The position numbers were made by a program, and so were the translations under genes. A model generated the notes under the pieces. It was not told the origin of the DNA and did no database searches. It saw only the letters and a list, made by a program, of their open reading frames with translations. A stretch of DNA of 64,000 nucleotides from Haplodiscus bocki (Eukaryota), in NCBI GenBank assembly GCA_965655095.1, contig CBFHFQ010000299.1, forward strand, positions 1 to 64,000, in the 5' to 3' direction. The number at the start of each line of letters is the position of its first letter. Within the stretch, counting starts at the first letter, position 1. Positions 4,400 through 49,242 of this stretch are shown here, in pieces.

Positions 4400-5310
4400 T
4401 TTCACAAATGTCTAAGAAAACTTCTGTGTAAATCAGCAGTCAGCCTGAACAGATTAAGTTGGGAAAAAAGAAAGAATGAGGTAATGGAAGGCTCCCTGGA
4501 AGGAGCAGGAAAGCATTGGATAGACAAAACATGCATCAAAAATTTCCCAAGTTCCCAAGTATTTAATACCTGATAATTTTGACAGTCTCACGAAAAATGA
4601 GCTTAAAGCTAATATAAAACGTATGTCACCTTTACATCGTCGACAATAAAGATCTATTTGAAATGTTCAACTAAATAAGGCTCTTTAAGAGCGTCCTCTA
4701 AGACAGTCACTGGTTTCCCTATGTCTCTGAATTTTGGTTCTTAAGGTCACAATTCAACAAACTGAACAGCTTTTTTGTGTACCTTTTTGGATGTCTTGAA
4801 AATACAATTCAATGTATTGTTTTTTATCAAGGCATTCAAATAAATAAACTTCCTCTTCAACCTTGGCTCACGGGATTTCGATCTCCATTTACCACTTTCA
4901 GCAGAACGTGTACTTTATTGCACATTTCTATCAGAACTGTGCGATAAATTGCAGCTATTGAAAAAAAGTTCCAAAAAGATCTTAACCCGAAAACAGAAAG
5001 CAGTTGAAGGACTTGAAAACGAGCTTACCCTAGTACGATAAAGAATGCAAAAGGCATGCATGCATGCAGCCAAACTTTTTATAGAACATGGAAAATCCAG
5101 ACATCTTGGTTGGAAAAATCCTGCAAAATTTGTCTGCACTTTGTAAAATTTTTGAAAAATCCTTCATTGTTTTAGTATTCATTTTGATGTTTTCGGGTCC
5201 AGAACACCGTTTCCTTCCTTTAAACGTAGACTGCAATCTTAAAAAAATTTCTGAGGGAAAATGTCAACAAAAAAAACTCATACTAAAATTTAAAGAAATA
5301 ATAATTTTTT
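4400..5310 (+). pseudogene. Possible hAT-type transposase remnant interrupted by Polinton 1 (may resume at ~24216-24500)
   Basis: FLSELCDKLQLLKKS (~4925) resembles the hAT FLxD(I/L)xxxLNxLNxSLQ block; KILVTAGSGSAEGG (~24335) loosely resembles the dimerisation-domain SAER motif. Weak. Confidence 0.25.
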
Positions 5311-5313
5311 ACA

Positions 5314-5875
5314 AGTAGTGTACAAAAAGGCATATGACACCAGACGCGGCGGCCGCACATCTTAACACAAAATAAAACAACAAAAAATTAATAGCAGAGT
5401 CCCTACACAGGGGTATATTTATAAAATAAAAAATAAAATAAAAAAGTAATTACTTATCAATGGGGTAGCACAAATTATGATAAAAATGAAGTGAAAGTAT
5501 ATAATTATGGGAAATTGAACAAATATGTTCAATTATACATTTATTTTATTTAATTTAAATTGTAGAAATTCCACTATATGTATGAATAATTTAAAAAATA
5601 AAACAAAAGATACAAACACTCTGTGTAGGATAACTCTGCTATGAATATTTTGTTGTTTTATTTTTTGTTAAAAAGTGCGATCCTTGCGACTGATGTCATA
5701 TGGCTTTTTGTACAGTACTAAGTCGTGACAGTATAAGATTTCTTTTTATTAGATAGAATTCTATTATGTTATCTTACATTTTTTTCTCCTCGTAATATAT
5801 ACTTTTCACATTTGTCATTATTTTTAACGTGTCTAGCCTTTTCAAATTTTTCTTTTACTTTTACAACCATTTAAT
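5314..5875 (+). repeat. Left TIR of Polinton 1 (~550 bp)
   Basis: Reverse complement aligns with ~23672-24209 (e.g. gtgtctagccttttcaaatttt vs aaaattttgaaaagactagacac); inner limit approximate. Confidence 0.9.
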
Positions 5876-6264
5876 AGTGTTGTTTTTTTCTGTTTTCTGA
5901 AGATGCATTTCAAATAAATCATTTCTTTAAATATTAGTTACATTGAGTTCACAAGTGATGAGAAAGTAGTTGCACAACTCATAGACGATAAATCAAATTG
6001 AAAAATACAGATTGAAATAGCCTCGAAATCATCACCCAAAACTCCTGTAAAATAAATTTAATCTTTTTAAATAACCAACGCAACTATCTTCTTCCCTAAT
6101 CACTTTCTCTCAGTAAAATATTCAGTAAAATACTCTCAAAAACATTTTCAATATCATTATCATAAATTTTTCAAAATTTTAGTATTCTTCTAATGGGTAT
6201 TGTTAATTATACATTTACGCGGCTGATTTAATTCATAAATAACATAAAAATTATAAAATTTTTA

Positions 6265-6480
6265 TTATGTTCTGCAAATAACACATCTTAATATATCAAT
6301 ATTACCTTTATTCTGATAGCATTGCTCACAAATACATTGATGACCACAATGTTTAAATACATAATCACTATCTCGCTCAAAGCATATAACACACTTCTAA
6401 TGTTCATATCTTCATCCATGGACACTGTTCAATAGACGGCCAACAACTATCGATCCTATTACAATCCATCATTTTTTTGA
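6265..6480 (-). pseudogene. RING-HC (C3HC4) finger protein, putative E3 ligase; missed by the ORF track
   Basis: 6396->6265 reads KCVICFERDSDYVFKHCGHQCICEQCYQNKGNIDILRCVICRT*, with all eight ligands; upstream frame has stops; 5' end approximate. Confidence 0.85.
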
Positions 6481-6600
6481 AACAATTCCAACTAGATTTT
6501 TTAAGGTTGATAATAAAACGGATCTAAATTACCATCTATTGAATTTAACAATGTACCTTGATTGACTTCATTATTTTCAATAAATTTTTAGTGATTTGAT

Positions 6601-7228
6601 ATGAAATATGTATATTCTTCTCCGAACGCAATAGTACAAGGCCATCGAGTCTTCACCAAGATTTATATCAAATATTAATTAAATGTTTTAGTAATTATAT
6701 ACCTGTTCACAAAATCCCAAATATTTTAAATGAAGAGGATACAGATGAAAAATTTACCGAAAATAAAGACTTTGAAAAACCAAAAACTGGAATAGAAACA
6801 TATGAATCGATAAAGGAATTAATAATTCTCCAGGAAGTTGAAAAAAAATATCATAATTATCTTAGATGGTTTGAAAGAAAAAGAAATCAACAACGATAAA
6901 ATACAAGCGATGTTTAAACGAGGACGTCATAATATATTATCTATATTTCTAATAAGTCAAGATTACTATGAATTACCAAAGAGAACGATTAGACCTAATG
7001 GCATTACCTATCACATTTTGAAACCAAACGTTTTCTTAGACGTTTGTAATCTTTATCAAGACAAAGCTTCCATGGATATGACATTAGATGAATTTAAATA
7101 CCTAACTAGTACTTGTTGGAATTACAAATATATTCCTCTAACTTTTGATATGACAACAGATAATTATACAGCTTGTTAGAGATTGGGATTAAATTCAATA
7201 TTTGTTCCAGATAGCAATCTTTTTTAAA
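6601..7228 (+). pseudogene. A32/FtsK-like DNA packaging ATPase (Walker A not intact)
   Basis: IIILDG (degenerate Walker B), MFKRGRH arginine-finger motif, ISQDYYELPKRTIR. Confidence 0.85.
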
Positions 7229-7375
7229 TATCATATACCTGTACGTGTACCCTTGTTTAAATACTCTTATAATTATACTTACGACCTAATTTTTATGAAT
7301 GTATAAATACTCAGATAATTGTAATTATGCTATTGTATAACTACTCAGATAAAGGTATGTATTTGAGTCTTATAA

Positions 7376-8074
7376 ATGAGTATTTATTCTAAGGTTACAG
7401 AACAAAATCAAGAGATAGTTCCTGTTGAAATTGATTCAGATAATTCAGAGGGTGATAATATAAGAGCTCTTCCAAACAGTTCCATTTTCAGTGATCCAAT
7501 GACAAAAACATTAGGGAGACTAATGTCTAGTTCCAATTCTCTAAAAATTAAAGCTTCTCCTTCTGGCGCAACAATTCTCTGAGTTCCTATATATACTCTA
7601 GGTGGTGATAAAATGAGAATACGTCATAATGATTATGAATTAACTCCTCAAGTTTGTAAAACGTTATGTTATACAGGATATACTGGTAAAAATATGAAAA
7701 AGAAAAATGATATTTTAATGATGATTAATATTATAAGAGATCAAGATTACACTGGTATTGGTGATAGACCATCAAATAGAAAAAATTTGTTCACAATAAC
7801 ACTCCCAAAAACAGTTGAAGAAATTCAAAACAAAACTTTTGATGAAATTACAGACGACTCTGATGATTTACAAGGAGAAGGAGTAAATATTATTTTACCC
7901 TGTAACATAATTGATATCTACACAAGACTTGAAATCTTACTCCGATTAAAACTGAGTGCCCATACTGATACCTCAACAGAAGCTGGTAACTTGATAGATG
8001 AATTATACAAGAGAGGTGAAATACTAAATGAACAACAAAATCGAAATGCTATCAAAAATTATTCTACCCTCTGA
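7376..8074 (+). pseudogene. Conserved Polinton protein of unknown function, likely core protein
   Basis: C-terminal IILPCNIIDIYTRLEILLRLKLSAHTD..EAGNLIDELYKRG matches the Polinton-type DPNEL..RL.LL....AGN block also seen at 51476-51742; one in-frame stop at 7580. Confidence 0.65.
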
Positions 8075-8860
8075 ACGGAACTACCTAGTAAACTATTAGA
8101 ACAAATAGCATTTAATACAAGACCTAAGATAGAAGAGCATATGCTAATTGTTTTTGGATAAGAGTACTCATGAAGAGCCTTTATCTCAACCATTTGAAAC
8201 TAATAAAAAACTTTTTAAAATTGCATTCACTTTCCTAACCGGTTATAATGGTACTTTCAAAATCACATATTCAAATAAAAAGTTTTATTGCAAGAAAACA
8301 ATTACTGGCGGAGTTGATTTTATTCAAAATAGTATAAAACCAGGTGTGTACGAAATCGAATCATTAAGTAACGAAATCAAGAGGATTATTATTGATAAAG
8401 GTCATTATAGTGAAAATGAAGATCCGTTCAGGATAAAACCAATTTTTTCAACACTCGGATCTAATATAGAAATATCACCACAAAGATCGATAATCAATTT
8501 TGTGTTTAACGATAGTATTACGAATGTTCTAAGATTTGATGAGGTTATATTATACAAAGAATATAATCTTTCACCTAATCCTGTTGATGTTTTATCATTT
8601 GATGAAATTTTTCTCGAATGTGATATTGCCAAAGGATAATTTTCAAAAGTAACAGAAGTGGTATCATTCATAATTGGACAATGACAGTTGATCCTGGTTA
8701 TAAAAACATCGAAATGTTTCGCGGTGGCGTGCAATGGTTTTTGCCGGAGACTAAAGATTTTATTTCAAGTATTAGTTTCAAATTAAAAAATGGAAACAAT
8801 GAATTCGTATCATTCAACGGCCAAACAATCACCTTCAGAATATCTATCAATGAAATATAA
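8075..8860 (+). pseudogene. Minor capsid (penton-like, single jelly-roll) protein
   Basis: PGVYEIESL, SPNPVDVLSFDEIFLECDIAKG, VDPGYK, ISSISFKLKNGNNEFVSFNGQTITFRISI are typical of Polinton mCP; one frameshift near 8640. Confidence 0.8.
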
Positions 8861-8879
8861 GTTAAATTAAATCTTATAA

Positions 8880-9040
8880 ATGCTGAAGTTTTTTTAAAAA
8901 ACCAAGATATAACCCTAAATTTAAAATTAAATCAAAGACGGAAAAAATTAAATGTTGACTCATCAACCAATTTACCATCTATTCTACAAAACTTTAAACA
9001 AAAATTATTATCCGGAGAAGGATTTATTATATACAGGTAG
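8880..9040 (+). pseudogene. Small lysine-rich putative core protein
   Basis: TAAATG start, K-rich, ends LLSGEGFIIYR*; frameshifted. Confidence 0.4.
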
Positions 9041-9060
9041 ACGTTTTTTATATCTAGTAA

Positions 9061-10359
9061 ATGAGTGCTATAGATTTTCAACTAAAAGATGATGAGAAAA
9101 TTGACGATTCCATTTTAAAGCGAGATTTCATAAAAATTGACCATCAATCCGCAGCTGATGGTAATAACGGAAATTGAAATATTAAATTCTATTTCGGTGA
9201 AAATCATGATTTTATTCAAATTGGTAATGGGTAAATAGAATTTTATATAACAATTAGAAAAGATGAAAATGATAATTTAACCATCACTTCTCCCGGGCAT
9301 GATGTTATTAGATTAGTTAATAAGGCTTTCGCTTATACAATTCCCATGCACGAATATCTTTTTCTTCAGGAGTCGAAATCGAACAAAATAAATATGTCGG
9401 GCCTATTTGTACTTTAATGACATTAGTTACACAAAAAAATGGTGATTTATCTACATATTTTGATAGAATTGATGAGAGTGAGGCTGGAAGAGAAAATTCT
9501 TCATTAAAAAAATACTCATCAACAATCATACTGCAGATAATTGAGTTGTTATTAAAGGTCATCTTCCCTTAGAATATATTTTTGGTTCTGCAAAATCATT
9601 TGAAAAAATACCTAAAGGATTAGGATTTGAATTAGATCTACCAACATCAAATAGAAAACGGGACATCTTATATACAACCTTGGGAGATGATGATGTTAAT
9701 GTTACCATCAATTGCATTAGTCTGTTTTTCCCCAGTTAATACCATCCCCTGGAACTCAAGTAAATTCTAATGAAGCTATTTCAAAAACCTTTACATTATC
9801 CTGTGAGCCTTGGACGACTGAAAGAAAACCAATCGATACAGCTAGAGAATTTCAAACAGATATCAGTTCAGCATCAAATATCAATTCTCCTCCATACCTA
9901 AATGCTGCCCATCAGAGAACACAGAGGTCCGATCCTGCTGATCATACTATTAATCTTCCAAACAACAGATTCAACGGTGCTATTTTCGATCATAGTAAAG
10001 TAAGAAAATATTATTCGGAAATAGAGGGCGTTCGTTATCCAAAGAATCCAATCACGATTAATTATGATGATAACAATTATCTGGCTCATTATAGAGATTT
10101 AAAATTGTTTCATAAAGAGTACGCCGGTGAATCGCTTCTATCTCTTATTATAACATATGGTAACATGAAGACTTATTATCCTACACAAATGTTGGATCTT
10201 CGATTTCAAGTAGATCATATAGCACCAAAGAAAATAAGACATTTTGAAGAATATGATAAAAATCCAGGTAATACTACTTTATATGTAATCTTGATAAAAC
10301 CTAGAGAAATTAAAATGATTTCTGATGGTATTAAAATTATCAGTGTTGAAATTGTATAA
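9061..10359 (+). pseudogene. Major capsid protein (double jelly-roll)
   Basis: ~430 codons across frameshifts: DDSILKRDFIK, GVEIEQNKYVG, LPLEYIFG, GLGFEL, IEGVRYP, LDLRFQ, LYVILI; lies between mCP and protease. Confidence 0.85.
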
Positions 10360-10541
10360 ATATATTTATACTTGTATTGATTTGTACAGTTATAATAATA
10401 TTTATATTTCTATTCACATTGGAACAGGTGTAATTATACTGTATTGATTAATTACATTCAAAAAATATGTTAATTTATTCATACAAGAGTAGTAAATACA
10501 TTTGACTGAGTGAAATTGTAACATTATCTATCAACTACTAA

Positions 10542-10938
10542 ATGACAATACTTAGTTTGAAAGATTTTATGAAAGAATATAATTTGAAAAATGATACTAT
10601 GAATGAATCAGATTTATAAAGAGTTTATAATTGTAAAATTTATCCTGGAGATAGTAAAATAACAACATCTAAAGGATTCGTAAATATAGACATTGGATCT
10701 CAAGGAGGATCTCATTGGACATGTTTTATAATAAAAAATAACAAGTCACATTACTTTAACAGTTTCGGTGGTCAGCCAGATAATTTTCCTCTCAATGAAT
10801 TACCTAAACCCATGATATATCATAATTATAAAAATCAAGATTTATATTCCAAATTATGTGGCTCATACTGCTTATACTTTTTCTTTTTAATTGAAAGAAA
10901 GAATTCTTATGATACTATTTTAGAAATGTTTTTTTGAT
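10542..10938 (+). pseudogene. Adenain-like cysteine maturation protease; missed by the ORF track
   Basis: NIDIGSQGGSHWTC, YFNSFGG, NQDLYSKLCGSYCLYF give the His/Asp(Asn)/Gln/Cys arrangement; one in-frame stop. Confidence 0.9.
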
Positions 10939-11040
10939 AAAGTATTGTAAACGAATAATTCCAGTATGATATTTTCAGTACAAAAACCCTATTGAAAGTA
11001 ATGTTAACTTAAATCAATTTCGTAAACTTAAACTGCAAGA

Positions 11041-12674
11041 AATGTATTTGGTAACAGTTGTTCCTCATATGATAATGGTAATGAAATTGAAAGATCATTA
11101 TTTGTACAAAAACCTTTTTTGAGATCTATTTTTATAGAAAGTAATATAGAAGAAGACATTGACTTAATAAATCAAACTAGAATTAAAAATTTACCAGATC
11201 TTATGTCCATACGAGAAGCAGCTTCAAAAATTTATGTTGATAATTTTTTTTAATGATCCTAGTATAATAATAAACAACAATCTGCATATAGACATAGACC
11301 TGAAAGATAAAATATTGTCAACGTAGGTTTTATAGAAGTAATTCGTTTGCCAAAATTTGGTGATCAATTAACATCAAAACTATATGTTGATAAAAATATT
11401 AGAATCAATGTAGTGGAATCAACTTTATTGAGATTAGATCCCGATGAAAATTGGAATCTACATGAACAAGATTCAATAATTCTTAATTCTACTTCAACAT
11501 CACTGAAAACGATAATAGAAATAATTACTAAAAATTATGTTCATAATAAATTTAATGATCCTAGTATAATGAAAAACACCGCACACATAGATCGTAAAGA
11601 TAGAAATATTACCAACGCTAGATTTATACAGGTGAATCAATGGCCCCAGATCGATTCTCATTTAACACCAAAGCTATTTGTTGATGATGCTATAGTCGAA
11701 TTGTCATTAGTGAGAATTAATCAAGACAACAATTTTAACAATCACAACTTAACTATTATAAACATTATTATTTTGAATTTACAAGCAGAAAATGATATTC
11801 AAGTCATTACTAAGGCCTATGTAGATCAATTTTGCCAAGAAAATGAACGATCTAGACGAGATTTAGGTACAAAATTTTATGATGAATAAAGTGATTCAGT
11901 AAAAAACATTCAAGATATTGAGTTCAACGATAGTAAATTAATAAATTCTGATAGTGTTTCAGTTAATAGATATCTTAGTTCAGATAATGAACAAGAAAAC
12001 AAAAAATTTTTTGATGAATCTTTAGGCAGTGGTAAAAATTTAAGTTTTAATCAAACAGTACAAATATATCTCAAGGTTTCTGGTGGAAATGATACATAAA
12101 CTCCTACTAAAAATGATAAAATACAAGTAACTGATACTACAATAATAAAATATCCAATTACAGGTAATTATCTTCTACAGAATTGGGTTATAAAATGTAT
12201 TGTTAAAATTAATAATTGTTAAAAAACCAAAATTTATAAAATCAACAAAAACAAACAACCCAACAGGTTAATATGGGGCAGAGTCGTTATTTCCTATCGG
12301 TAATAGTTTTATGTATGTAGAGACATCATCTAATAATCATGGTAACAACGTATTTGTCAGCTTCGAACGAACTGATATTTTTCAGATTAGTAATATTACT
12401 TTCTATTATGATAGATTTTCAATTTTAACTAATGATTCATTGAAATCAATGGGTCGTGTTAGAATTCAATTGTTATTATAAGATAATACTTGGAGTACTC
12501 TATATAACATACCTAAAAATGATCGATGTAGTGATACATCAACCCAATGGACGAAAATAACTTTAATTTTTTTTTGCAGAAAATTAGGGGACTAAATTAA
12601 TTTATGATGAGATAGACAGTGCCCATGCTGATATGTGCTTCAGTAGTTTTAAAATAACAAGTTCTGTATTTTAA
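11041..12674 (+). pseudogene. Fibre/spike-like protein with repeated KxYVD units
   Basis: Repeats ASKIYVD, TSKLYVD, TKNYVH, TPKLFVD, TKAYVD and two FNDPSI..N..HID blocks, then a beta-rich C-terminus; includes ORF 11347-11889. Confidence 0.55.
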
Positions 12675-12918
12675 ATGAAATATGAAAACTATTTTGCAGA
12701 TATGTTTGAATCTATTCCTGATTACGGAAAAATAGTATTAATAATATTATTAATTCAAAATGGTGGTGATTTATTCAAGGAAAATGGTTTTTTGAAGAGT
12801 GATATTAATCGTTTAAATAAAGGGTTCAAATATATTTCACTTGAACAAAATGAAGAATACTTAGATTATATAAAAAACGAAGAAGAATCATAAATTGAAA
12901 AGGTCTTAAACAAGTAAA
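12675..12918 (+). pseudogene. Small hypothetical Polinton protein
   Basis: ORF 12675-12893 with TAAATG start abutting the fibre-gene stop; frame continues a few codons past a stop. Confidence 0.45.
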
Positions 12919-13159
12919 TAGAAGCTTGTTTTGCTGTAAAGTTTGAGGATATTAGACATGAAAGATCGTTTATATTATAACTGTCATTGACGGATCCTGA
13001 TACATTAAAACAAATCAAATTCCCAGATCTTGAAATAAATATTATAAAAAACGTAGCTTCAGAAAAATTACACATACAGCGAATATTAAAAAAGGAAGTA
13101 GCTATTGCTTTATTGCTTTACTCGAAGCAGAATTAGAATAGTTTTTTTTTGTTTAAAAA

Positions 13160-13775
13160 ATGAGTATATATCCTATTTTGAATAAAGATCCAGTATTGTT
13201 GAGCAGAAATACTAAAGATGATGAAATCAAAGACTTAAAATATGAAACTGAGAAACACGATCATGAAAATATATTAAAATCACTTAAAATTGATAATGAA
13301 AGTTATAAGATGAACTAAAAAATTTTAAATAAAAAGAAAGTGTTATTAAGCATCCCTGAAACTTTAAATGGATCTGCTTCAGTTTTTAGTTCTTCAACAT
13401 TGGGTTTGATCAATCCTGGTGCGGGTAATATTAATTCAAGTTGCACAGCTCCGTTAACTGGTATCGCTACCATAATCACTAATGAATACATCTCAAAATT
13501 GAAGATACGATATACTAAGCTTAGGGGGTGGAAATATTTTATATACTTTGTTATATGAGAATACTTTAAAAACTTCCAAGGTTGAATAAAAAAATGATCA
13601 AAAAGAAGCTGAGGAATTGAAAAAGATTAATAATCATTATCTTCGTAAAAGAAAAGAGATCATGGAAAATACTAGTTTCAGGGTTGAAGATGTTTTCGGT
13701 GATGTTCTAAGTAAAGATAATTTTAGTCAAGAACAAGAAACTAAACCTAATAAATTTTTAGCCAAAATAATGTGA
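13160..13775 (+). pseudogene. Putative membrane-active protein (coiled coil, hydrophobic hairpin, coiled coil)
   Basis: MSIYPILNKD start; small-residue hydrophobic core GSASVFSSSTLGLINPGAG..TAPLTGIATII; same architecture as 53204-53740. Confidence 0.55.
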
Positions 13776-13881
13776 ATATAAATATAAATAACAAATTTGT
13801 TTTTTTTTCAAATAGAAAGAAAAAAAATATTGATTATCAACCGATTGCTCCTCCCTAGTATGAATAACTTTTCTTTGTCAA

Positions 13882-14040
13882 ATGACAAAGACATGGTGTG
13901 TTGGTGGAAAGCATTATAGTGATACAAATAATATAATTGAATACGAGGAAGTGAACCCTAAAACCAAAAAACTACTTAAAATTATAAAAGGTAATTGTAG
14001 CATTTGTAGACGAAACAAATCACAAATTTTTACTAAGTAA
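13882..14040 (+). CDS. Small zinc-ribbon protein (DUF5679-like), 52 aa
   Basis: MTKTWCVGGKH...IIKGNCSICRRNKSQIFTK*; open frame below the ORF-track cutoff. Confidence 0.55.
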   Translation: MTKTWCVGGKHYSDTNNIIEYEEVNPKTKKLLKIIKGNCSICRRNKSQIFTK

Positions 14041-14469
14041 TTGACTAAAGGAGACAATTTTATTAAAAAAGGTAAATGCAAGAATAATCATTGTTCATCT
14101 ATGGCAAATTCAGCGTGGTGTGACGTAAATAGTAAAAGTGATATATTAAAACTACATGATAAATGTCCTAATCCTATATGTAAATCTCAAAAGATAATTA
14201 CCTTCACACCACGTCAATATATGCTCGAGGGTGGATCAATAAAAACTAAATTAAAATCAATTTTCAGAGGAACAAAAAAAGCTTAAGATAGGTTTATCGA
14301 ACCAGGTTTAAAAATGGTAACACCACTCAAATCGGCCCCTGTTACCGCAAAAACAAAGAATCCTCAATCTCCTCAAATAACGAATAAATTTTTAAAATCA
14401 TTTACAGGTGGTAAACTTTTATCAATAACCGATATACATGGGAACGGATTACAATTAAAAGTAATGTGA
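14041..14469 (+). pseudogene. Basic Cys-containing core protein with adenain-type cleavage sites
   Basis: K-rich; MLEGGS, FTGGK and IHGNG in one frame; one internal stop at 14284. Confidence 0.55.
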
Positions 14470-14499
14470 ACTCCTTTCAAATAAATGTCAGCTAAATAA

Positions 14500-15110
14500 A
14501 TGAATAACCAAATTGTAGAAAATAAGATGATGAAATTGTGTTCTAAATGTGCAATTATTTGAAAAAAGAGTAGTTTTTTGCTCATAATTTAACAAAAGAT
14601 AAATTATATCCTAGTTGTAAGTTTTGTGTGATTCAAGAACAAAAAGATTTTTAATCAAAAAATCGAGATCGAATAAATAATAATCACAAAATAAATAGTT
14701 AACAAAACAGAGCTAACTTAAACTCAAGTGAGAGAAGGAGAAGACTCTCAGATTTTAATTATCGTTTGGTTAAGAACACGAGATGTAGAATTCATCATGT
14801 TCTTAATAGTAATTGAAAATCATCTTGTACAATAGTTATTTTAGGTATTGACATAGAAACCTATCGAAAATGGATCAAATACCAGATGACTCCTGAGATG
14901 AACTGGTAAAATATTGAATATGATCATCTGAAGCCCATTTGTATGTTTGATGTATCCAAAGAAAAAGAGTTGAAAGAAGCATTCTGCTGGAAAAATACTC
15001 AGCCCATATCAAAACACAATCATAAGCAAAAAGGGATTAAGTTTAAGTTTTTAGATTATCAACTGCAATTTTTCAAAGCGTATCAATTTTTCAAATTAAA
15101 TGAAGAAGAG
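14500..15110 (+). pseudogene. HNH-like endonuclease of the type common in large dsDNA viruses; missed by the ORF track
   Basis: N-terminal CxxC..CxxC, then RCRIHHVL, ILGIDIETYRKWIKYQMTPEMNW, EYDHLKPICMFD, FCWKNTQPI..HNHKQKG. Confidence 0.75.
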
Positions 15111-15957
15111 AGACCTAACTAAAATCTTTATTGATGAAATATACAGTAAACCTCCTAAGAGAAATTATGAAACTATAAAAATATTATACAATCACATTGA
15201 TGGAATATGGAGCATTGACTTAGCGGACATGATTGATTACAAAACATCAAATAATAAAAGATATAGATACACATTCTCTGTAATTGATAATATCTCGACG
15301 TTTGTTTTGGCCCACTTCTTGAAAAAAGGTATAGTAAAACAATAACAGAGGAATTTTCAAATATTCTAACCACTTCAAAACGATCTCCTGTTAAATTAGA
15401 AAGCGGTAGAGGAGCAGAATTTTATAATAGTATCTTTCAAATTTTTTGAAAAGTAGAAATATATGAGAATCTTCACAATTCACAGAGAAAGGCCCATCGA
15501 TAGCAGAACAAGTCATTATAACTATACGTAATTTATTAAGAAACCAATGTTTTTAGCTGGTAAAGCGTAAAGCTTCGTGGATAAATGAATTACCATCTGC
15601 TTTCAAGAAGTATAATAATACCATACATTATTCAACAAAAGTAACTCCCATTTAAACTAGTAAAAAATCAAATGAAAAAGTAGTTTATAACAATCTTAGA
15701 GACGATAGAGAAAAACAAAAACCAAAGTTTCATCTTTCTCAATTAGATAGAACAGCTGATATTAAAAAAGTTTTCAATAAGGATGATTTAACAAATTAGA
15801 GTTATAAATTACACTCACAGAAGTTATACACGACACTATACTGTCATATCGAATCAACTATTTACACGAAAGATACAGTGAACACTTTTTAAGACCAACA
15901 AAATAAACCTTGGAAGAAAATAATCAAGTTATGAAAGAACTAAAATTATTTCAATAG
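15100..15957 (+). pseudogene. Retroviral-like (rve) DDE integrase
   Basis: IWSIDLADM, YRYTFSVIDN, LESGRGAEFYN, YNNTIH; frameshifted. Confidence 0.9.
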
Positions 15958-15969
15958 TATAATAAATAA

Positions 15970-17291
15970 TAAAGGGAACTAACAGAAGTTGAAATTAATA
16001 AAAGATATGCTAAACAATGTGGTCAGTGCAATCGAAATACTCTTCTACCATACGAATATGAATGGACTTGTATTTTTCGTGGATACAACGTAATCAAACG
16101 GAAGCACGAACTTAGTGAAATTCAACGAAGGAAAGTAAACAACATAATTCGATTAAAATTTGCTGAACACCCAATTTTTTGCATTTGTATAGATGTGTAT
16201 AAAATACATGAAGTATTAACCAAATTAAAAAATAAAAAACTAAAAATAAACAATAGCCTAATTGGGAAATATGAAGAAAGGTTAGAAAATTATAATTTTG
16301 AACCAGACTACTATTCAAGAACAGCAATAGGTGTTTATAAAATGGCACATGATTCTCTTAGATTAATGAAATGGTTAGCTTATTATGATAGGTCTTATCA
16401 TGAGAAGATAAGTAATTATGATTTGATGGGTTCTTTTTCAAAAGATTTATATGAAATTTTTTAATGGTGAAAATTTTGTTGAAGTGAACGGCCATTAATT
16501 TAAAATTCATCCAACAGAAAAATTAATTTTAGGACTCCGCGGAGAACCAAAATGTATTAGAATTCAATATCATGTTCAAAATGAAACTCGGATAAGGAAA
16601 AATCAAAAAGATATTGGAAGTAAAAATAATGAATTAGAATTTAAGAATTCTCCTAAAAATAAACAACCATTTTTTCAACAACAACCAAAATTCAAACCAC
16701 CAAATTGTCCTAGTTGCAAACAAAATAATTGGTTAAAACTTGATAAAAGTTAATATTGTCAGAATTGTGAATATAATATTAATAAACAAAAACATCAAAT
16801 TGATAAAAAAAGTTCCTAGACAATATCATTATTTTTCAACTAGATTGCCATATGCTAAAAAGGAAAAACAAACTCTGATGAATATAGTTGAAACTACTTA
16901 TATTACAACAGAAGATATGATTATTAGGTTACAAAGTTTGAAATGTAAAACAAAGTTGAAATTTCATAAAAATTCAAGTAATTATTATGATGAAATGAAT
17001 ATTAGGAATTTTCAGTTTGAAGAAGATATTTTTTCTAGAAATGCTCAAAGTATCAGTAAAGTTTATCATGAAGTATTATTTTTATTGAAATTTTCACAGA
17101 CTAAACCTCAAGTGAAAAATATCAATAATAATTATTAAGATTTATATTATACAGTAATTAAAAACAGAGATGATGAAGAAATTGTGAATGACAAATATGA
17201 AGATAACGAAACTGATCATTTTAATTATGACGACTTCATAACACATATTCATTCTATTGGACGAAAGAACGATATTGAAATATTAAAGTAG
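15970..17291 (+). pseudogene. Cluster of hypothetical Polinton genes (small Cys-rich protein; 16195-16464; CxxC protein ~16463-17291)
   Basis: KQCGQCNR..WTC; PPNCPSCKQNNW..CQNCEY; ORFs 16195-16464 and 16740-17138. No recognised family. Confidence 0.45.
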
Positions 17292-17297
17292 AGGAAA

Positions 17298-19330
17298 ATG
17301 AGATCGCAGATAAATCATTTCAAATATTTCTTACTATTTAAATAGAGACGCAAATATTGAACAGCCGCAAATGTGAAATTTGTTTTATTGATGTTCATAG
17401 AGCATCTTATATCAAACAATTGAAAAGTATAAAACACTTAGAAAAAAAACAAAATGAAATGATTTTTCCAGAATGGTTATTTAGAGAATTTCTTGAAAAT
17501 CAAAATAAAAAAATAAATAATCGTAAATCATTAAAACGAACAGCCAGGGAAATTAATCTGCTGAAGGATACGCAATTGAATAAAGAATTACCTAAAAAGA
17601 TGAATATTCCATATTTTTTTACTGATGAAAATTTGAAAAAGGGATTCAAAATTAATCCAGATATTCAACACATTAATCATACTAGTTCTAAACTAACTAC
17701 TACACCAATTTATCCTGAATTTGGAGTTGAAGTTCGTTATGTTAATGAAATCATAAAAGAAGTATCTGTCATTTCTGCTAGACTAATAAATCAATATAAA
17801 CTCAGGAACGAAGCAGTTTTTTCAGCAACATTTGATAAACAAGATGAAGATAGTCAAGTATTAGATGAAACAGAATTATTCATTAATTTGAATTTCAATC
17901 AAAAATTAACAGAAAGTGATCTTGATAACATTGACATTAAATCTCCAATGGAATATCAGATACAACAACAGGAAATGAAAGATTCTGGACGGCGATTTCA
18001 TAAAATTAATTCGATGACTTTATATTTCTATCAAACAGGTATAATGAATAATGAATGGTTCAAAATATATTGAAAATCCTTTGAGATCAAAGGCTATCTT
18101 GATTTTTGAAAAAATGGTAAATATTGTTTTATTTGGTCTATATTAGATAGTCTTCCTCCTTGTAGTAATAATCATCCGAATAGTGTTTCGAATTATAAAC
18201 ATTCTTTTGATGAAATAAACATTCAATGTTTCGCTTTTACTAATGGATTCAAATGTAGTGATGTTCACGATTTTAATGAAATAAAAAATTTGTCCATAAA
18301 CATCTTTGAATTAAACTTTTGTCAACATCAGAATAAATGCAAACATAAATAATCCCTATTGAAGTTAGTAAAACTGAATCAAATAGAATTGTTGACTTGA
18401 AAACTTACAAAAATATTTATGTTCTAATTAAAAAATTAAATGTATTTTTAGGAGATCTTCACAAAACTTTCAATTGTAGGCAGTGTTTGAATTCATATGC
18501 AAGTGAAAATATGTTAATGTTACATAAACAAAATTGTGGTGAGGATATTATAACTACTACTAGAATATCATCTGATTCTCATATTTATTGGAAAAATCAT
18601 TTTCATAAAAATCCAATATAATTTATGATTTATGCAGATTTCGAGGCTCATATTGAAATTTTTAAATCTAGCATACGTGATAGGACAACTAATATTTATA
18701 AGCAAAACCCAGTACTTAATGGTTTTCACATATTATCTGGTATAGAACATGTTTTAAAAAGTGGTTATTATAAATCTCCTCTAGGTTACAATAAAATGAA
18801 TTGGTTTGTAAACTAAGTTATGAAATTAGAATAAAAGATGGTTTTCTATTTTAAAAACACTGAGAAAGACATCATTATGACTGAAGAAGATGAAGAAGAT
18901 TTTCGAAATTTTAATACTTGTCCTTTTTAAATAAAAATATTGAATCTGATAAAGTAACAGGTCATTGTCAATAAACAGGTAAGTACAGAGGCCCAGCTCA
19001 TAGCAAATGTAATATTAATGTTACTCAAGATAAAAGCAGTTTTATACCATTTATAATTCACAATTTTAGTAACTATGATTGTCATATGTTTTTCAAGGGA
19101 TTGGTTGATAAGAAAATGATAGAGTAAAGGTTGATAATACTCCCAAAACAAATGAAGAGTTTCTGTCAGTAACATATGGTTGTATTAGGTATATAATTAG
19201 CTATCGATTTCTATCAAGTAGCTCAGATTCATTATTTAAAACATTACTTGATAATAGTCATAAAACAATGAAAGATTTGAGAGAAGAAATTGTTGATAAT
19301 GAAGTAATCTTAAATATTGTTAATGAATTT
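17298..19330 (+). pseudogene. Protein-primed DNA polymerase B, N-terminal half only (copy A)
   Basis: Zn finger CEIC..H, CFIWSIL, ExoI YADFE, EndoVII-like HC..TGKYRGPAHSKCN, ExoII HNFSNYD; stops before the polymerase motifs. Confidence 0.9.
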
Positions 19331-19344
19331 TAAAAAAAACATTA

Positions 19345-19820
19345 CATTGATAAAGAAGTTCGTAGGCAAGATCATCTTTTTTCAACTAGATTACCATATG
19401 CTGATAAAAGGATAAGAGAAAAGTGGATGAATACGGTTAATACTACATGTAATTCAACAGAAGATATGATTAATAAGTTACAAGAATTGAATGGAAAAAC
19501 AGAATTAAAGATTTTATAAAAATATAAGTAATTATTACGATAATATGAATATTAAGATGGATGAAGATCCTTTTGCTAAAAATGGTCAAGGTTTTAGCAA
19601 AAATTATCATGAAGTATTGTTGTTAATGAAATTTCTACTGACTAAGCCTCAAGTTAAGAATATGAATCTTAATTAAAAAGATATATATTATACTGTTATT
19701 AAAAATAGAGGTGAAAGAGAAATTGTTGATAATAAAAATGAAAATGATTATAATAATTTTAATGATATTATGCCTAATCATTACATTGGAATTAAAAGTA
19801 ATAATGAAGAATTAAAGTAG
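19345..19820 (+). pseudogene. Diverged duplicate of the 3' part of the 16463-17291 gene
   Basis: FSTRLPYA, TEDMI.KLQ, YHEVL.L.KF..TKPQVKN are shared with 16800-17291. Confidence 0.8.
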
Positions 19821-19826
19821 AGAAAA

Positions 19827-22800
19827 TTGAGATCTCAGATAAATCATTTCAAACTTTTTATCCCATATAAAAAGACACGCAAAAAGAATACCCGCCAATG
19901 TGATATTTGTAATGTTGATGTTCACCGAGCATCATATGTAAAACATTTCAGAAAAAAAACTTTAGAAAATGAAAAGCAAATTGAAATGATTATACATGAA
20001 AGTTTATTTCAAGAACCTATTGAAAACAATATTTTAAAAATAAATTATCCTAAAACATTAAAACAAATAGCAATAGAAAATATTAAACTGGCTGATAAGC
20101 AATTAAATAAAGAATTAGCTAAAAATATGATTAGTTCTTATTAATTCACTGATAGAAATTTGAAAGTGGGATGCAAATTTATTTTAGATAGTCATCATAT
20201 TAATCATTCTAATTTTAAATTAACTATTACACCTAATTATCGTGAATTTGGAATTGAAGTTCGTTATATTAATAAAATCATAAAAGAATTATCTGTTATT
20301 TATGCTAGATTAATAAATCAATATAAATTCAAAAATCAAACAGTAGTTTCAGCAAGATTTGACAAACAAGAGGAAGATAATCAAGTATTAGTTGAAACAG
20401 AATTGTTCATCAATTTAAAAATCAATCAAAATTTAACAGAAGGTGATCTTGATAATATTGACATTAAATCTCCATTAGAGCATCAAATACAACAACAAGA
20501 GAAGAAAAATTCTGGATGGAGATTTGATAAAAATATTTCAGTGAAAATATATTTTTATAGAACTGGTGAATTAAATGGTTCAAATTATGTTAATGTTTCT
20601 TTGAGATCAAACGCTATCTTAAATATAGAAAATATTGAGTAATATTGTTTCTTATGAGCATTATTACCTTTTATACATCCTTGTAATGACAATCATCCGA
20701 ATAGAGTTTCAAATTATAAACAATATTTTAATGAATTGAACATTCAAGGATTTGATTTTACAAATGGGTTCAAATGTAGTGATATTCATAAATTTGAGGA
20801 ATTAAACAATTTATCGACAAACATGTTTGAATTAAACTTTGATCAAGATCACAAAAAGTGGAGAAATAAACCAAACCCTAGTGAAGTTAATAAAAACGAT
20901 TCGGGCCCAGTTACTGATTTATTAATTTACAAAAATCATTATGCTCTCTTTAAAAAATTTAATGTATTTTTAGGAGATCATCATAAAATTTCTACCTGTA
21001 GAAGGTGTTTGAATTCATATAAAAGCGAAAATATGTTAAAGTTAAATAAACAAAAATGCGGAGACGATAATATAACTACTATCAAAACTTCAAATGAGTC
21101 ACATCTTTATTGGAAATATCACTTTCATAAGACTCCATTATACTTTAGAATATATGCAGATTTCGAAGTTGAAAATGAAAAAGGTAATTCTAGTTTAGGT
21201 AATAAAGCAACAAATATTTATAAGCAAAACCGAGTACTTAATGGCTGTTACATAGAATCTGAATTGGAAGATGTCTCAAAAAGTGAATATCATAAATCTC
21301 CCATAGAATATAATAATGTTGGTTGGTTTGTGGATGAGGTTTTAGAACTAGAAAAAAAGATGGCTTTCAATTTTGAAAACACTACTAAAGATATTACTAT
21401 GACAGAGAAAGATGAGAAGTTTTTAAAATTAATAACAATCGCCGATTTTGTGAAAAAGGAATTATCGATAATAAGGTTAGAGATCATTGTCACTTAACAA
21501 GTAAATACAGAGGAGGGGCTCATAGTATTTGTAATTTTATATAACACAAAAACAAAGTATCTTCATCCCATTTAATTTTCATATTTTTTCTAATTACGAT
21601 TGTCATATGTTCCGCAAAAAATTAGTTGACGAAAAGAACGATAAAGTTAAATTTGATATACCTAAGACAAATGAAGAACATATTAGTGTTACTTATTGTT
21701 GTCTTATATATATTGATAGTTACCGTTTCTTATCAAGTTGTTTAGATTCCTTAGTGAGGACACGGTTGATAATGATGAAATATTGAATATTGTTAATGAA
21801 TTAGGAGAAGATAGGACTATTGAAGATTTGAAATAGGATTATCCGGATAAAATAGGGGACTTAGAAGAAGCTTTACTCAATTATATAGGTGAAAAAGATT
21901 CTAAAATTTTAAAAACGGAACTTCCTGATAAATGGAAGTATTTAACTAAAAAAACTAGCTTATCCATATGAATTTTTCAATTGTATTGAAGATTATCAAA
22001 AGTCTGTTGACAATTTAAAGAAAGAAGACTTTTTCAGTAAATTAAAAAAGAAATGTCCTGATGATGAAGAGTTAGAACGAACAAAAGAATTTATTAGAAG
22101 AACCAATACTAAAAATGGAGAAGAATTAACGCAAAAATATTTAAGAAGCGATGTATTTTCACTTACATGTGCGTTTGAGAAGTTTATAAAAAAATCAGTT
22201 AACGAATCTGATATCAGTCCTCTAAATTGAGTTAGTTTATCTGGTTATAATTGGCAGTGTTGTTTAAAATATACAGGAATAAATTTACAAACACTTCAAG
22301 ATAAAGATTTAGTTTTAACATCAGAAACTAATTTACGTGGTTGAATATCATCAGTAATAGGAAATAGATTTGCGAAATCAAATGAAATACAATAAAATAA
22401 TTTATGCGGATGCTAAGATGTTATATGGTCATTCTATGAGTCAACTTTTACCTTATGATGAAACTGAAATGTGGCGCGATCATTCAGATCTTTGTATGAA
22501 TAAGTTAGAAGAAATTTTGAATACTCCTGATGATAGTGATCATGGGTACTTCCTTGAAGTTGATTCAAAATATCGCGATAATATAAACGAAAAAACGAAA
22601 ACTTTTCCATTTTGTGCTGAAACTAAAGTTAATCATAAAGATAAATATAATGATTATATGAGAAAAATAAAACCTAAAAACTATATAAAAGCTATGAGTC
22701 TAATATGTGTTTGGATTGATGAAAAGAATTGTTTAAGTCAATATAGGTTGTTAGAATTAGATGCTACACATGGTATGGTAGTTGATAAAAATCATGAAAA

Positions 22801-23670
22801 AATTTCGTTTAAACAGAGTAAGTGGTTGGAGAAAAATAAAAATTTTAAAACACAAAAGTGAAACAAGGCTAAAAAATATTTTCACAAAGAATTCTATAAA
22901 TTACTCAACAACGCATTTTATGGAAAAACAATGGAAAATATTCGTAATTGTTTGAAATTAAAATCTTTTTAAACAGATTTTACAAAAAATATTATTAAAC
23001 AACAATCTAAATTGACTTTCAATGGAATTCTCAAATCAAATGGAAATTTTGGTAGCTATACATTCATCCAAAACGAAATTTTTATGGCTAAGGCCTAGTT
23101 ACTTAGGATTTCCTGCAATGAAATTGAGTAAATTACACATGTATGAGATATATTTTGATAAATTACAACCATATTTTGGACAGGAAATCTTACATTTACT
23201 TTATATCGATACTGACAGCTTTATATTAAGTATAAATACAAAAAATTTTATCAAAGATTTAAAAAAATTCAGAAGATATAATTCATTTCGTTCACTTAGA
23301 TGAAAATCATGAACTATTCAGTAAAAAAAATAAAAAAGTAATTGATAAATTCAAAATTGAAACACCTGAAAATATTTGGATAGATGAATTTGTTTGTCTA
23401 AGAGGTAAAATGTATGGATTTAAAAGTTGGGATCAGAGTAAAAATTTAAAAAAAGGAGTTTCTAAAACATATTGAAAAGGAATTAAATTTGAAGAATATA
23501 AGAAAAGTTTAGATGGAGAGGAACATGAAAAAAATGTGAAAATTAATTTATTCGATCACTTAACCATGAAATATGAAATGAAGCTCCAACGAGTAAAAAA
23601 ATCTATGCTATCTCAATTTGATGATAAACGATGATATACAAATGAAACTGAAATTCTACCTTGAAATTAG
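19827..23670 (+). pseudogene. Protein-primed DNA polymerase B, full length but decayed (copy B)
   Basis: YADFE; VRDHCHLT; motif A YADAKMLYGHSM; motif B KLLNNAFYGKTMEN; motif C YIDTDSF; terminal FDDKR. Confidence 0.95.
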
Positions 23671-23671
23671 T

Positions 23672-24209
23672 ATGATTAAAAGTTTTTAAAAATAGAAAAA
23701 AATTTTGAAAAGACTAGACACGGTAAAAATATTGATAAATCTAAAAAGTATTTTTAGGAGGAGAAAGAAATGTACGAGGTCATGATAGAGCTCTATATAA
23801 AAAAAAGAAATCTTATACTTTCACGACTTAGTAGTGTACAAAAAGTCATATGACATTAGTCGCAAGGATCGCACATTTTAACAAAAAATAAAACAACAAA
23901 AAATTCATAGCAGATTTATCCTACGCAGGGTTGTTGTCTATTTTATTTCGTTTTTTATATAATTCATACATATAATTGAATTTCTATAAATTAACATAAT
24001 TATATAATTGAACATATTTGTTCCATTTCACATAAATATATAAATTCACTTAATTTTTATTATAACTTGGGCTACCCCATTGATAAGTAAATATTTTTTT
24101 TATAATTATACCCCTGTGTAAGGACTCTGCTATGAATTTGTTGTTGTTTTAAAATTTTTAAAATGTGCGGCCGCCGCGTCTGGTGTCTTGTGCCTTTTTG
24201 TACACTACT
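23672..24209 (-). repeat. Right TIR of Polinton 1
   Basis: Inverted copy of 5314-5875, ending ...tgtacactact. Confidence 0.9.
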
Positions 24210-25095
24210 CGTACAAATGTATTTGAAAATTGAATAAAACACATCAATTTTAAGAAAAACACTCCGAGAAAGTTGCGAAAATAATCTCAATTTGACCGCT
24301 TTTAAGGACTGGCGTCCAACGGGGGGAGGTGGTAAAATTCTCGTTACTGCTGGTAGTGGAAGTGCGGAAGGCGGAGTCAACAGAAAAGATCCCTATGAAA
24401 AAATGTGCATTTCTCGACCAGCGAGCGAAATGATTTTGAATATTAAGCGCAAATTTTACAGTGCCGTGGATCGGAAACCTAAAAACAATAACTGATAATA
24501 TTGTACTTAGATTTTCTGCTGTATTGTGTTATGTATTTTTGGCCGTGTGAAATGAGTTTCTGAAATTTGGCTTCCAAAAACTATTTTTCAGTTTCGTCTC
24601 TGAGACCGGTTATTCAATTTTGTCCCTATGAGTAGTCACCTCGCACCCACATCATTTTATTTTAGATCTCATTCAATTTGACCTTATTCCAATTTTCTGT
24701 CGCTTCGGAAATCGCGAATTAAACTTTGCTTCTCAACCAACCAGTCAACATCAAGCACTTTTCTTGCGCGCGCACCTTCGAACCAGCTATCGTAACTTAG
24801 TGAGACAAGAATTTCAAAAAACTGTTACAAAGGCACAGTAACAAGTCTCGAGCGTAGTGGGAGCACGCATACCGCCAACTGAACTTGTCAAAATTTCAGA
24901 TCTTCTCTCATTAGATCTTAATATTTAGATCTTTTTCCACCCTCCAATTGTCGAGCCTACTTGAAAAGAAATAAGATCTAAAACATCATTGTACCTGAAA
25001 TACAAATAAATAAACAATACATAATAAAAATACATAATATCAATATATAAAAACGTAATTTATTCACTCTTCACTGAAAACTTTGTGTAGAGAAT

Positions 25096-29213: not shown

Positions 29214-29282
29214 AAATATTGTATTGAATATTGTCGAGATTAGTATTTGGAGGAGAGTTTATGCAACAAAGAGATGTGTGTA

Positions 29283-29524: not shown

Positions 29525-29577
29525 TACTCCGCTCCTTGGACTATATGAGTTCAATAATAAAGTAATTCAGATATACA

Positions 29578-43480: not shown

Positions 43481-44334
43481 TCAACGGGCAAACCGTTTTG
43501 AGCTTCAGACCAAAAAATTGCAGAAAAAAGAGTATCAACCTTGCATAAAAAAACAGTTGAACGCAAGGACTCTGCAAAGGACAATTTAACATTTCCCCTG
43601 TAAACAGTAGAGTACTATGTAAACTGGCATTTGACGCCAAAAGACGCAGACGCAACGGAATTTGACACCCTAAGTTGCGGCGCTGTAAAAAAATTAAGTC
43701 AACAATTATAATAAAAAAAATTACCCACCCTCTTTCTCCATCATATTTCCATAAACATAGAATTGATAAATATGTTACACTGGAAATTACACTTAGAATT
43801 ACACAAAAGTTTACACTGTAGTGTCGTTTTTTGTGTAAAATACACTGGAGTGTCGTTTTTTGTGTAAAAATTTACTGGCTGGCGAATGACAAAAAAGTCA
43901 TACACATTTTTTTCCCGACCATAGGCTGGAAAAAATGCACCTGCACATTTACGAAATCAGCCAGTGGATTATTTTTTTGTCTCAAACGAAAACACGATTT
44001 CTCAGAAATAAGTGTACTAGCATGAAGACTAGCACATAGTTTTTTAAGGATATCTCCATGAATACTTGTCCGATTGACTTCAAATAAAAACTGACGTAAA
44101 TTTGAGCGAATTGAGATTTTTGTTTCGAGAAAAAATAGTATTTGTACAAGTATAAGAATAAATCTACTATTATTTGTATTTGAACAAGCGTTATTATAAA
44201 TTTTTATTTGTAAAATTTGTACAAGTATAAGAATAAATATACTATTGATCGTATTTGAATAAGTACTTCTTTTTACAAGTATAAGAGTAAATATATTTGA
44301 ATAGGTGTTAATATAAAATTATGTACAATTATTA

Positions 44335-44800
44335 GTTTACTTGATTGAGCCAATTGTGACATGTAAGGCGAAAAGGATTATTTTAATCATTGCAAAATTA
44401 ATCTACATATTGTTGAATTTGTGAGATTTTTTTGAAAAATTAACTATGCATTTTTGATATTCGATGTTTTACATAAAAACCTATGTTTATATTGCGTTGA
44501 TGTGAAAAAATTTTTATTGTTAGTTTGTTTATATGTAAAAAAATAAAACCATTTTCTCGAGCAACTTTTAATTTGTTGTTTAGATCGTACAAATCCATGT
44601 TTTTACCTCTGACTGTAAACTTAATCATGTCATTATTTGCGATAATTTTAAATTTAATGTCATAAATATATTCATTTTTAAGTTTATGAAAATAATTTTT
44701 GTGACAGTCTCTAAAAAAATTGTCTAATATAGAATCTGTTTCACCACAAAGCGGGTTATCAAATTTTTATTTTTTAACAAGACATAAATCGCTTTCATTT
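44335..44800 (-). pseudogene. Hypothetical Polinton 2 protein
   Basis: One frame of ~150 codons with few stops (DSILDNFFRDCHKNYFHK...LKVARENGFIF), containing ORF 44440-44628. Confidence 0.45.
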
Positions 44801-44863
44801 AATTATCAGAAACAAAATATTTTTTCTACAATAGACTACAAGGTATTCAAATTTTACCAATGA

Positions 44864-44870
<7 letters not shown>

Positions 44871-44894
<24 letters not shown>
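44871..44894. repeat. (TA)n microsatellite
   Basis: 12 TA units immediately before ATG 44898. Confidence 0.9.
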
Positions 44895-44897
44895 AAA

Positions 44898-45197: not shown

Positions 45198-45254
45198 ATT
45201 TGGTACGGATGATTATATGAAAATCAAATCCAAGAAAAACTTTTATTATCTAAA

Positions 45255-48898: not shown

Positions 48899-48949
48899 TT
48901 TGCGCCTCTTTTTATATAGGATTAATTTATTTAAAATAAAAACACTTCA

Positions 48950-49240: not shown

Positions 49241-49242
49241 AA

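Follow-up and report, generated by a model that had tools for sequence, protein, structure and literature searches.

How are the Polintons of animals transcribed, and do they live as autonomous nuclear viruses or as parasites of larger viruses? The question is raised by a 64,000-nucleotide (nt) stretch of Haplodiscus bocki DNA (assembly GCA_965655095.1, contig CBFHFQ010000299.1, positions 1 to 64,000; hereafter the window), which holds two decayed, AT-rich Polintons (elements 1 and 2) with a G+C content of 25-30%. The genome around both is probably that of an animal. Almost every virion gene of the two elements, together with some accessory genes, is preceded by a bipartite sequence: the hexamer TAAATG, which includes the start codon, and one or two T residues ten to eleven bases upstream. 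Judged from the sequence, the two parts most likely make up a single late promoter of poxvirus type, a reading to which we assign a probability of roughly 0.8. Virophage-style borrowing of promoters is already known; what is new is a poxvirus-type promoter in a classical Polinton.

A preliminary description of the locus had stated that most virion-module genes start at TAAATG. The sites that it listed are all real (7373, 8877, 9058, 10539, 12672, 14497 and 15097 on the plus strand; 51337 and 53030 on the minus strand), and position 14038 reads TAATTG, as described. Its generalization holds in so far as TAA precedes 7 of the 11 virion-block starts, whereas 14497 (an HNH-like open reading frame, ORF) and 15097 (the integrase) do not belong to virion genes; the list also passed over four late-block starts that lack TAA (13160, 13882, 52255, 53740), as well as 14482, where a second TAAATG lies in frame, and 44801 (minus strand), a probable start. 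Because the window contains 68 copies of TAAATG (36 on the plus and 32 on the minus strand), their presence alone means little, and real starts are what counts. Seventeen annotated starts have an intact ATG, the two in-frame HNH candidates being counted once; eleven of them are placed by reading-frame structure and general knowledge of related Polinton proteins rather than by homolog alignment. Among the six homolog-validated starts, TAAATG is present at four, those at 7376, 9061 and 15100 being backed by homologous N-termini and that at 51334 by more distant ones, while 52255 (TGAATG) and 49243 (AAAATG) lack the TAA. Over all 17 starts, positions -3 to -1 read TAA nine times, AAA four times, CAA twice, and TAT and TGA once each, and all nine cases of TAA fall among the 13 late-block starts with an intact ATG. 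The enrichment of TAA has a binomial p of 7e-9 at the measured intergenic background of 0.042 and of 1e-5 at a generous background of 0.10. A comparison with internal ATGs, which had been proposed earlier, gives TAA at 20 of 579 other sense-strand ATGs; this contrast is inflated, because TAA directly before an internal ATG in the same frame would interrupt the gene, and intergenic DNA provides the fair background.

The sequence could in principle act in translation, through stop-start coupling on a polycistronic mRNA, as an insulating in-frame stop or as an A-rich start context. The genes are packed in one direction, AA occupies -2/-1 in 15 of the 17 starts, and a stop abuts the start at three junctions (8072, 12672, 14038); the decayed start codons at 8075 and 14041 both lie at such junctions. 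The preliminary description had already flagged 12672 and 14038 as stop-start junctions and had pointed to long gaps before 7373 and 10539. Both remarks are borne out, with 148 and 182 nt from upstream stop to ATG in the latter two cases, and 12672 turns out to be the sole junction among nine intact TAAATG starts. The other eight lie 19-182 nt from the upstream gene or inside it, as does the 15100 start, which is within the upstream ORF in another frame (individual gaps in Table 1). Moreover, among the 15 starts with AA, T fills -3 in nine against an expected frequency of 0.26 (p=0.006), near-misses retain AAATG (CAAATG twice) and not the stop, TAG is never seen at -3, and none of the translational models predicts a fixed T at -13; a translation signal is thus very unlikely to be the explanation. 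The earlier caution that AT richness and junctions might produce the pattern is justified for the window at large, with its many copies of the hexamer, but neither explains the signal at starts (p≤1e-5; eight of nine not junctions).

The second part of the motif emerges from a position matrix of 18 late-block sites, comprising the 13 starts with an ATG and five positions with a decayed start codon. T occupies -13 in 17 of the 18 (13/14 in element 1, 4/4 in element 2) and -12 in 15; the sole exception at -13 is the 14500 start, which has G, and its in-frame twin at 14485 has T. TT at -13/-12 is found at 14 of the 18 positions and at 11 of the 13 with an intact ATG, compared with a local frequency of 0.14, and none of 20,000 shift permutations reached this count at any offset or for any dinucleotide. 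By spacer length, the TT count peaks at 14 for a spacer of 8 and falls to 7 and 5 for its neighbours. The dinucleotide is also present at the four late-block starts without TAA, at five of the six homolog-validated starts and at none of four non-virion starts, two of which have a single T at -13. A run of at least five T residues lies within -25 to -4 at six of the 13 late-block starts (p=0.01 versus intergenic DNA), and the base after the ATG is A or G in seven of the nine TAAATG starts. The two virion modules can be regarded as independent witnesses, because their virion blocks give no blastn match to each other and the element 2 major capsid protein (MCP) shares only 22-31% identity with homologs of its element 1 counterpart; by these sequence comparisons element 2 is a different virion lineage from element 1.

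Chance, in AT-rich DNA with hand-picked starts, has to be weighed against these counts. Across the window TT-N8-TAAATG occurs 19 times where 11.3 are expected, a number reached by 4 of 100 shuffles, and three of the five decayed positions, as well as the eleven starts placed without homologs, leave room for selection, since those three were located partly by their TAA. This makes them circular for TAA and not for -13, a position that had no role in the choice of starts, and the homolog-validated starts taken by themselves retain TAAATG in 4/6 and TT in 5/6. TT-N8-TAAATG is only mildly enriched window-wide; the signal is its placement at gene starts, with seven of its 11 sense-strand sites falling on the 17 starts among 611 ATGs. 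When T-N9-TAAATG is applied as a prior test, it holds for eight of the nine TAAATG starts and for 17 of the 58 other TAAATG copies (p=0.001); eight of its 13 sense-strand sites are annotated starts, and among the remaining five, 14485 and 44798 lie at gene 5' ends. Chance is largely refuted already and is extremely improbable as an account of the pattern.

The geometry is that of the vaccinia late promoter. The published late consensus is a T, nine unspecified bases and TAAATG, which places the T at -13 (PMC11423596, Table 1). Late promoters are further described as an A/T-rich stretch, a 6-bp spacer and TAAAT(A/G), the T run of P11 ending 8 nt before TAAATG (PMC7117657), and the same architecture of A/T-rich stretch, spacer and TAAAT is given in PMC5294985. 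The core of the poxviral polymerase itself reads the TAAA initiator (PMC12917281), and slippage on initiators of the TAAA type yields 5' poly(A) leaders (PMC6211774). As in P11/F17R, TAAAT overlaps the ATG, T stands at -13 and the motif serves virion genes; at both MCP genes a T run is followed by a spacer of 6-8 nt, and the spacer of the element 1 MCP is 8 nt as in P11. Unlike the vaccinia promoters, the present sites sit in integrating Polintons of 10-19 kb with no recognised polymerase, and matching early signals were not found. Since the upstream T falls on the published vaccinia position and the explanations by junctions and AT richness fail, the identification of the hexamer as a poxvirus-type late initiator, made in the preliminary description, is now well supported.

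That description had gone on to suggest that the elements rely on the transcription system of a large DNA virus. Here the type of late promoter is supported, and reliance on a helper can reasonably be supposed from the parallels with mavirus, Gezel-14T and the Polinton-like viruses (PLVs) associated with entomopoxviruses, the tests on early genes being null or weak. Pfam and NCBIfam scans of the broken ORFs of the two copies, both of which carry deletions, recognised neither an RNA polymerase nor a transcription factor; if, as it seems, the elements have no polymerase gene, that of a helper would be used. We think it fairly probable that the late genes are read in trans by a poxvirus-type helper polymerase in the cytoplasm, in a virophage-like life. 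A poxvirus-like large DNA virus would infect a cell carrying the element, and Polinton DNA in the cytoplasm would be read by the helper's polymerase and late factors. Virion proteins, plus the element 1 integrase, would be made late and only in co-infection, as with mavirus and Cafeteria roenbergensis virus (CroV), from monocistronic mRNAs with poly(A) leaders, and PolB would use a different, possibly early, promoter. Both copies in the window are dead, and the promoter would date from active ancestors.

The main rival keeps the motif as a true late core promoter and has it read in the nucleus, free of any helper, by host RNA polymerase II with a host or element factor, so that the likeness to vaccinia would be ancestral or convergent. 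The elements integrate and so reach the nucleus, polB shows no significant avoidance of the poxvirus early terminator, and all three polB copies share a TATATAAAAAG box some 20 nt ahead of the start, with AAA(T)TGA further upstream. Element-encoded regulators are conceivable too: two Cys-rich ORFs with CxxC pairs (15973-16461 and 16451-16816, plus strand) lie between the integrase and polB of element 1 and could be candidates, their Pfam matches to zinc fingers or zinc ribbons being weak (E≥0.06). To our knowledge, though, no polymerase II core promoter has the shape T-N9-TAAATG. With TAAAT over the start codon and T one helical turn upstream, a transcript would have no 5' leader, which poxviruses supply by slippage, and the predicted structure of the PZ-like protein (predicted local distance difference test score, pLDDT, 63) resembles no transcription factor, matching only coiled coils among solved structures, with only the N-terminal helix well tested; an Atlas search with this protein gave no usable match. 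A polymerase II programme with a look-alike motif is therefore considered unlikely.

Around polB, related sequence precedes both copies in element 1 (about 17290-17360 and 19818-19890, plus strand), and this conserved upstream stretch is possibly an early promoter. The pattern AAA.?TGA lies within 80 nt upstream in four of six non-virion regions (two of them duplicates) versus one of 18 late starts, with a background of 18-26%, and serves as a lead only. When four intergenic stretches were aligned, no long block was found in common. Several other signals were considered and set aside. Among nine intergenic stretches folded for hairpin terminators of the mimivirus type, the best z-score was -1.78 and the other eight ranged from -0.14 to 1.08; the 8-nt spacers hold no conserved AG that would mark a splice or trans-splice acceptor; and the two bases before TAAA vary freely, which disposes of overlap with a poly(A) signal (NNTAAA) as the main cause. 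An 11-nt sequence, TTATAYTTGTA, recurs on the sense strand shortly 3' of stop codons in both elements, at 10366-10376 (plus strand) and at 51384-51394, 44274-44284, 44220-44230 and 44145-44155 (minus strand), with a related copy at 7262-7271 (plus strand). It follows the element 1 MCP gene, the element 2 PZ-like gene and the last ORF of element 2 (three in tandem); five matches compare with 0.19 expected for a pattern picked post hoc, and a 3'-end or termination signal is possible.

The helper could instead be another cytoplasmic large DNA virus with a late promoter of the same appearance that has yet to be described. We know of no poxvirus from this host. Relatives of poxviruses exist whose promoters are undescribed, such as egovirus (bioRxiv 2024.03.23.586382, where neither 'promoter' nor 'TAAAT' occurs), and in yeast linear plasmids a TAAAN initiator works with a polymerase that the plasmids themselves encode. 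Among the late promoters compared, however, TAAAT(G) is found only in poxviruses, the others being TATA in African swine fever virus (ASFV; PMC7163114), TATATA in pacmanvirus (PMC11788076) and TCTA in CroV and mavirus (PMC8547959), and a helper outside the poxviruses seems quite unlikely.

Comparable systems place the poxvirus-type reading in context. Promoter borrowing is established for mavirus (PMC8547959) and Gezel-14T (bioRxiv 2022.07.28.501842) and has been suggested for Halocafeteria elements (bioRxiv 2026.07.28.741278). Like mavirus with CroV, Sputnik with mimivirus and Gezel-14T with Phaeocystis globosa virus (PgV), the present elements are small integrating double-jelly-roll viruses with what would be the promoter of a helper before their genes; those three pairs occur in protists, have helpers from the Imitervirales and use TCTA or AAAATTGA motifs, whereas here a poxvirus-type motif stands in a Polinton with PolB and rve integrase, probably in an animal genome. 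PLVs found in the occlusion bodies of entomopoxviruses (AHEV_PLV1/2 and CBEV_PLV1) have been proposed as poxvirus hyperparasites (Barth et al. 2024, PMC11296320) and resemble the present elements, by description, in their A32 ATPase and capsid genes and in a protease gene, which is putative here; they differ in that the evidence is co-packaging and gene exchange and that their capsids are described as highly diverged, and the words 'promoter', 'motif' and 'TAAAT' are absent from the accessible text of that paper. Adintoviruses share terminal inverted repeats (TIRs), PolB, rve integrase, A32 ATPase and double-jelly-roll MCP (Starrett et al. 2021), and the accessible text of PMC8502044 describes no promoter. 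The yeast plasmids pGKL1/2 are likewise linear DNAs with protein-primed PolB and a poxvirus-like TAAAN initiator on which slippage produces 5' poly(A) leaders; unlike the Polintons they encode a polymerase and a capping enzyme of their own, lack capsid and integrase genes and use an upstream element of early type (PMC6211774, which also notes that no transcription machinery had been reported for Polintoviruses). The word 'promoter' is absent from PMC11071296, bioRxiv 2025.04.19.649669 and bioRxiv 2024.03.23.586382, and no report of TAAATG or of a pox-type late promoter in Polintons was found in the literature searched, which leaves out most subscription papers. DNA relatives were absent from scans of bacterial and archaeal genomes and from tblastn of phage records. 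The PZ-like model matches R9XLH4 (DUF8207, rank 1) and the MCP model R9XLG5 (rank 3), both of Cotesia sesamiae Mombasa bracovirus and, we presume, part of a Maverick insertion.

A number of observations weigh against a poxvirus-type promoter served by a helper. Four of the 13 late-block starts lack TAA, the element 2 integrase has neither TAA nor the TT element, and the -13 element was found post hoc, then corrected for and matched to the published position. Of the vaccinia early core AAAANTGAAAA there is a single copy, which lies within a gene of element 1 and not before polB, and element 2 has none; polB shows no significant depletion of TTTTTNT (6 in 9,376 nt versus 10 in 9,813 nt of decayed DNA; p=0.26); and a TATA-like box precedes polB, which could be a sign of host polymerase II. 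The window contains no helper virus sequence, only two decayed elements were examined, and the absence of a polymerase gene depends on profile scans of broken frames. Finally, adintovirus replication is reported with a baculovirus in insect cells and in cavefish, with no poxvirus helper mentioned in the accessible text (PMC8502044).

That two diverged lineages of Polintons share exactly the geometry of vaccinia late promoters is evidence of the kind that tied mavirus to CroV. The promoter would name the class of helper to look for and extend poxvirus-type transcription past its known hosts. Tentatively, and with less than even confidence, a whole, highly amplified branch of animal Polintons might consist of virophages of poxvirus-like viruses, the promoter being the footprint of an undiscovered poxvirus relative in the host lineage. 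If so, lineages that depend on a helper could be told from autonomous ones by sequence alone, through the score for T-N9-TAAATG in each Polinton.

Table 1. Elements and start regions in the window (coordinates from position 1 of the 64,000-nt stretch; offsets such as -13 are counted from the start codon)
Feature	Coordinates	Strand	Remarks
Element 1, Polinton/Maverick, decayed	5300..24223	+	TIRs 5300-5795 / 23754-24223
PZ-like gene start, TT-N8-TAAATG	7363..7378	+	homolog-validated; ATG 7376 is 148 nt past ATPase stop
Penton-like gene, TT at -13/-12	8062..8077	+	PZ-like TGA stop at -3..-1 (8072); start codon decayed
Small ORF, TT-N8-TAAATG	8867..8882	+	probable start by frame; early frame breaks; ATG 8880 is 19 nt past penton-like stop
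Element 1 MCP start, T6 run + 8-nt spacer + TAAATG	9048..9063	+	homolog-validated; ATG 9061 is 20 nt past stop
Protease-like gene, T-N9-TAAATG	10529..10544	+	first ATG of frame; ATG 10542 is 182 nt past MCP stop
TT-N8-TAAATG, TAA is the upstream gene's in-frame stop	12662..12677	+	only intact such case
PW-like gene, T9 run over -13/-12 then TAAAAAATG, no TAA at -3	13147..13162	+	
Small Cys-containing ORF, TT-N8-CAAATG	13869..13884	+	putative start, by frame
TT-N8-TAA before decayed start codon	14028..14043	+	stop-start junction; 14038 of the preliminary description
HNH-like ORF, two in-frame TAAATG (14482, 14497)	14472..14502	+	at -13, T for 14482 and G for 14497; ATG 14500 is 30 nt past upstream stop
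Element 1 integrase start, TT-N8-TAAATG	15087..15102	+	homolog-validated; inside 3' end of upstream ORF, other frame
Element 2, partial decayed Polinton	~44140..53800	-	ends approximate
Element 2 PW-like gene, TT-N8-CAAATG	53738..53753	-	
Element 2 ATPase, TT-N8-TAAATG	53025..53040	-	probable start by frame; ATG 53027 is 176 nt past upstream stop
Element 2 PZ-like gene, TT-N8-TGAATG	52253..52268	-	N-terminus aligns to homolog residues 3-37
Element 2 MCP start, T8 run + 6-nt spacer + TAAATG	51332..51347	-	ATG 51334 is 78 nt past upstream stop
Before element 2 PolB: AAATTGA at -55, TATATAAAAAG box ~20 nt before ATG, CAAAATG start	48896..48955	-	
Element 2 last ORF, 5' end, TT-N8-TAAATG	44796..44811	-	found later; had been counted as control, outside the start list

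Membership of the Polinton/Maverick group is indicated by the TIRs of element 1, protein-primed PolB, rve integrase, double-jelly-roll MCP and A32-like ATPase. In element 1, whose TIRs are about 500 nt each and 83% identical, the genes run from a truncated A32-like ATPase through a PZ-like gene (DUF8207-like), a penton-like gene, a small ORF and the MCP to a cysteine-protease-like gene, a fibre-like gene, four small or accessory ORFs, the HNH-like ORF and the rve integrase, followed by the two Cys-rich ORFs and a PolB of the protein-primed type that has an internal duplication of 2.5 kb; the reading frames are interrupted by numerous stops and breaks. Pfam profiles identify the ATPase as PF04665 (Pox_A32) and the MCP as PF21738, homologs of the integrase (70-77% identical) carry PF00665 (rve), and PolB was recognised by its similarity to that of element 2 (45-60% identical). 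The penton-, protease-, fibre-, HNH-, PW- and PZ-like labels are our assumptions from motifs and gene order. ORFs stand at the positions expected for a penton and for an adenovirus-type cysteine protease, the latter label drawing on a presumed His...Cys motif; the penton-, protease-, fibre- and HNH-like ORFs gave no Pfam match, nor the first two a PDB match. The MCP model is poor (pLDDT 48) and its low-confidence fold matches to MCPs would confirm the fold class only. Homologs per gene number from hundreds to more than 1000. A 6-bp target site duplication is not evident in the flanks.

Each TIR holds (within 5314-5719 and 23830-24209) an inner inverted copy of its terminal 90-100 nt, and the AGTAGT end recurs inside. 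At about 6600-6650 the ATPase and the remnant of a minus-strand ORF (about 5880-6640) meet, and both 5' ends are apparently lost, for which reason the start of the element 1 ATPase was left unscored. The duplication (16800-19330 versus 19340-21800, about 77% identical) takes in the 5' part of polB together with the ORF that precedes it, and possibly reflects two recombined or nested copies.

Element 2 is a partial copy in which no TIR was found. It carries PW-like, ATPase, PZ-like, MCP and PolB genes on the minus strand, an integrase on the plus strand and two small ORFs. Its PolB scores E=6e-4 against DNA_pol_B_2, under the curated cut-off and on a broken piece; polB and the integrase are 40-60% identical between the two elements. 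The element 2 integrase (49243-50100, plus strand) is inverted, divergent from polB and without the late motif; that of element 1 closes the late block and carries the motif.

Other repeats surround the Polintons. Reverse-transcriptase-like fragments, as we take them to be, lie at 25591-26483 (minus strand), and a 316-aa open frame at 37514-38464 (minus strand) is presumably transposase-like with a C-terminal Cys-rich finger. Degenerate arrays of units of about 360 bp, with no long ORF, occupy 58400-62300 and 42550-43480. A BEL/Pao-type retrotransposon remnant spans 29282-36074 (Peptidase_A17, E=8e-13) and has a 243-nt direct repeat at 29282 and 35832, the copies of which are 95% identical.

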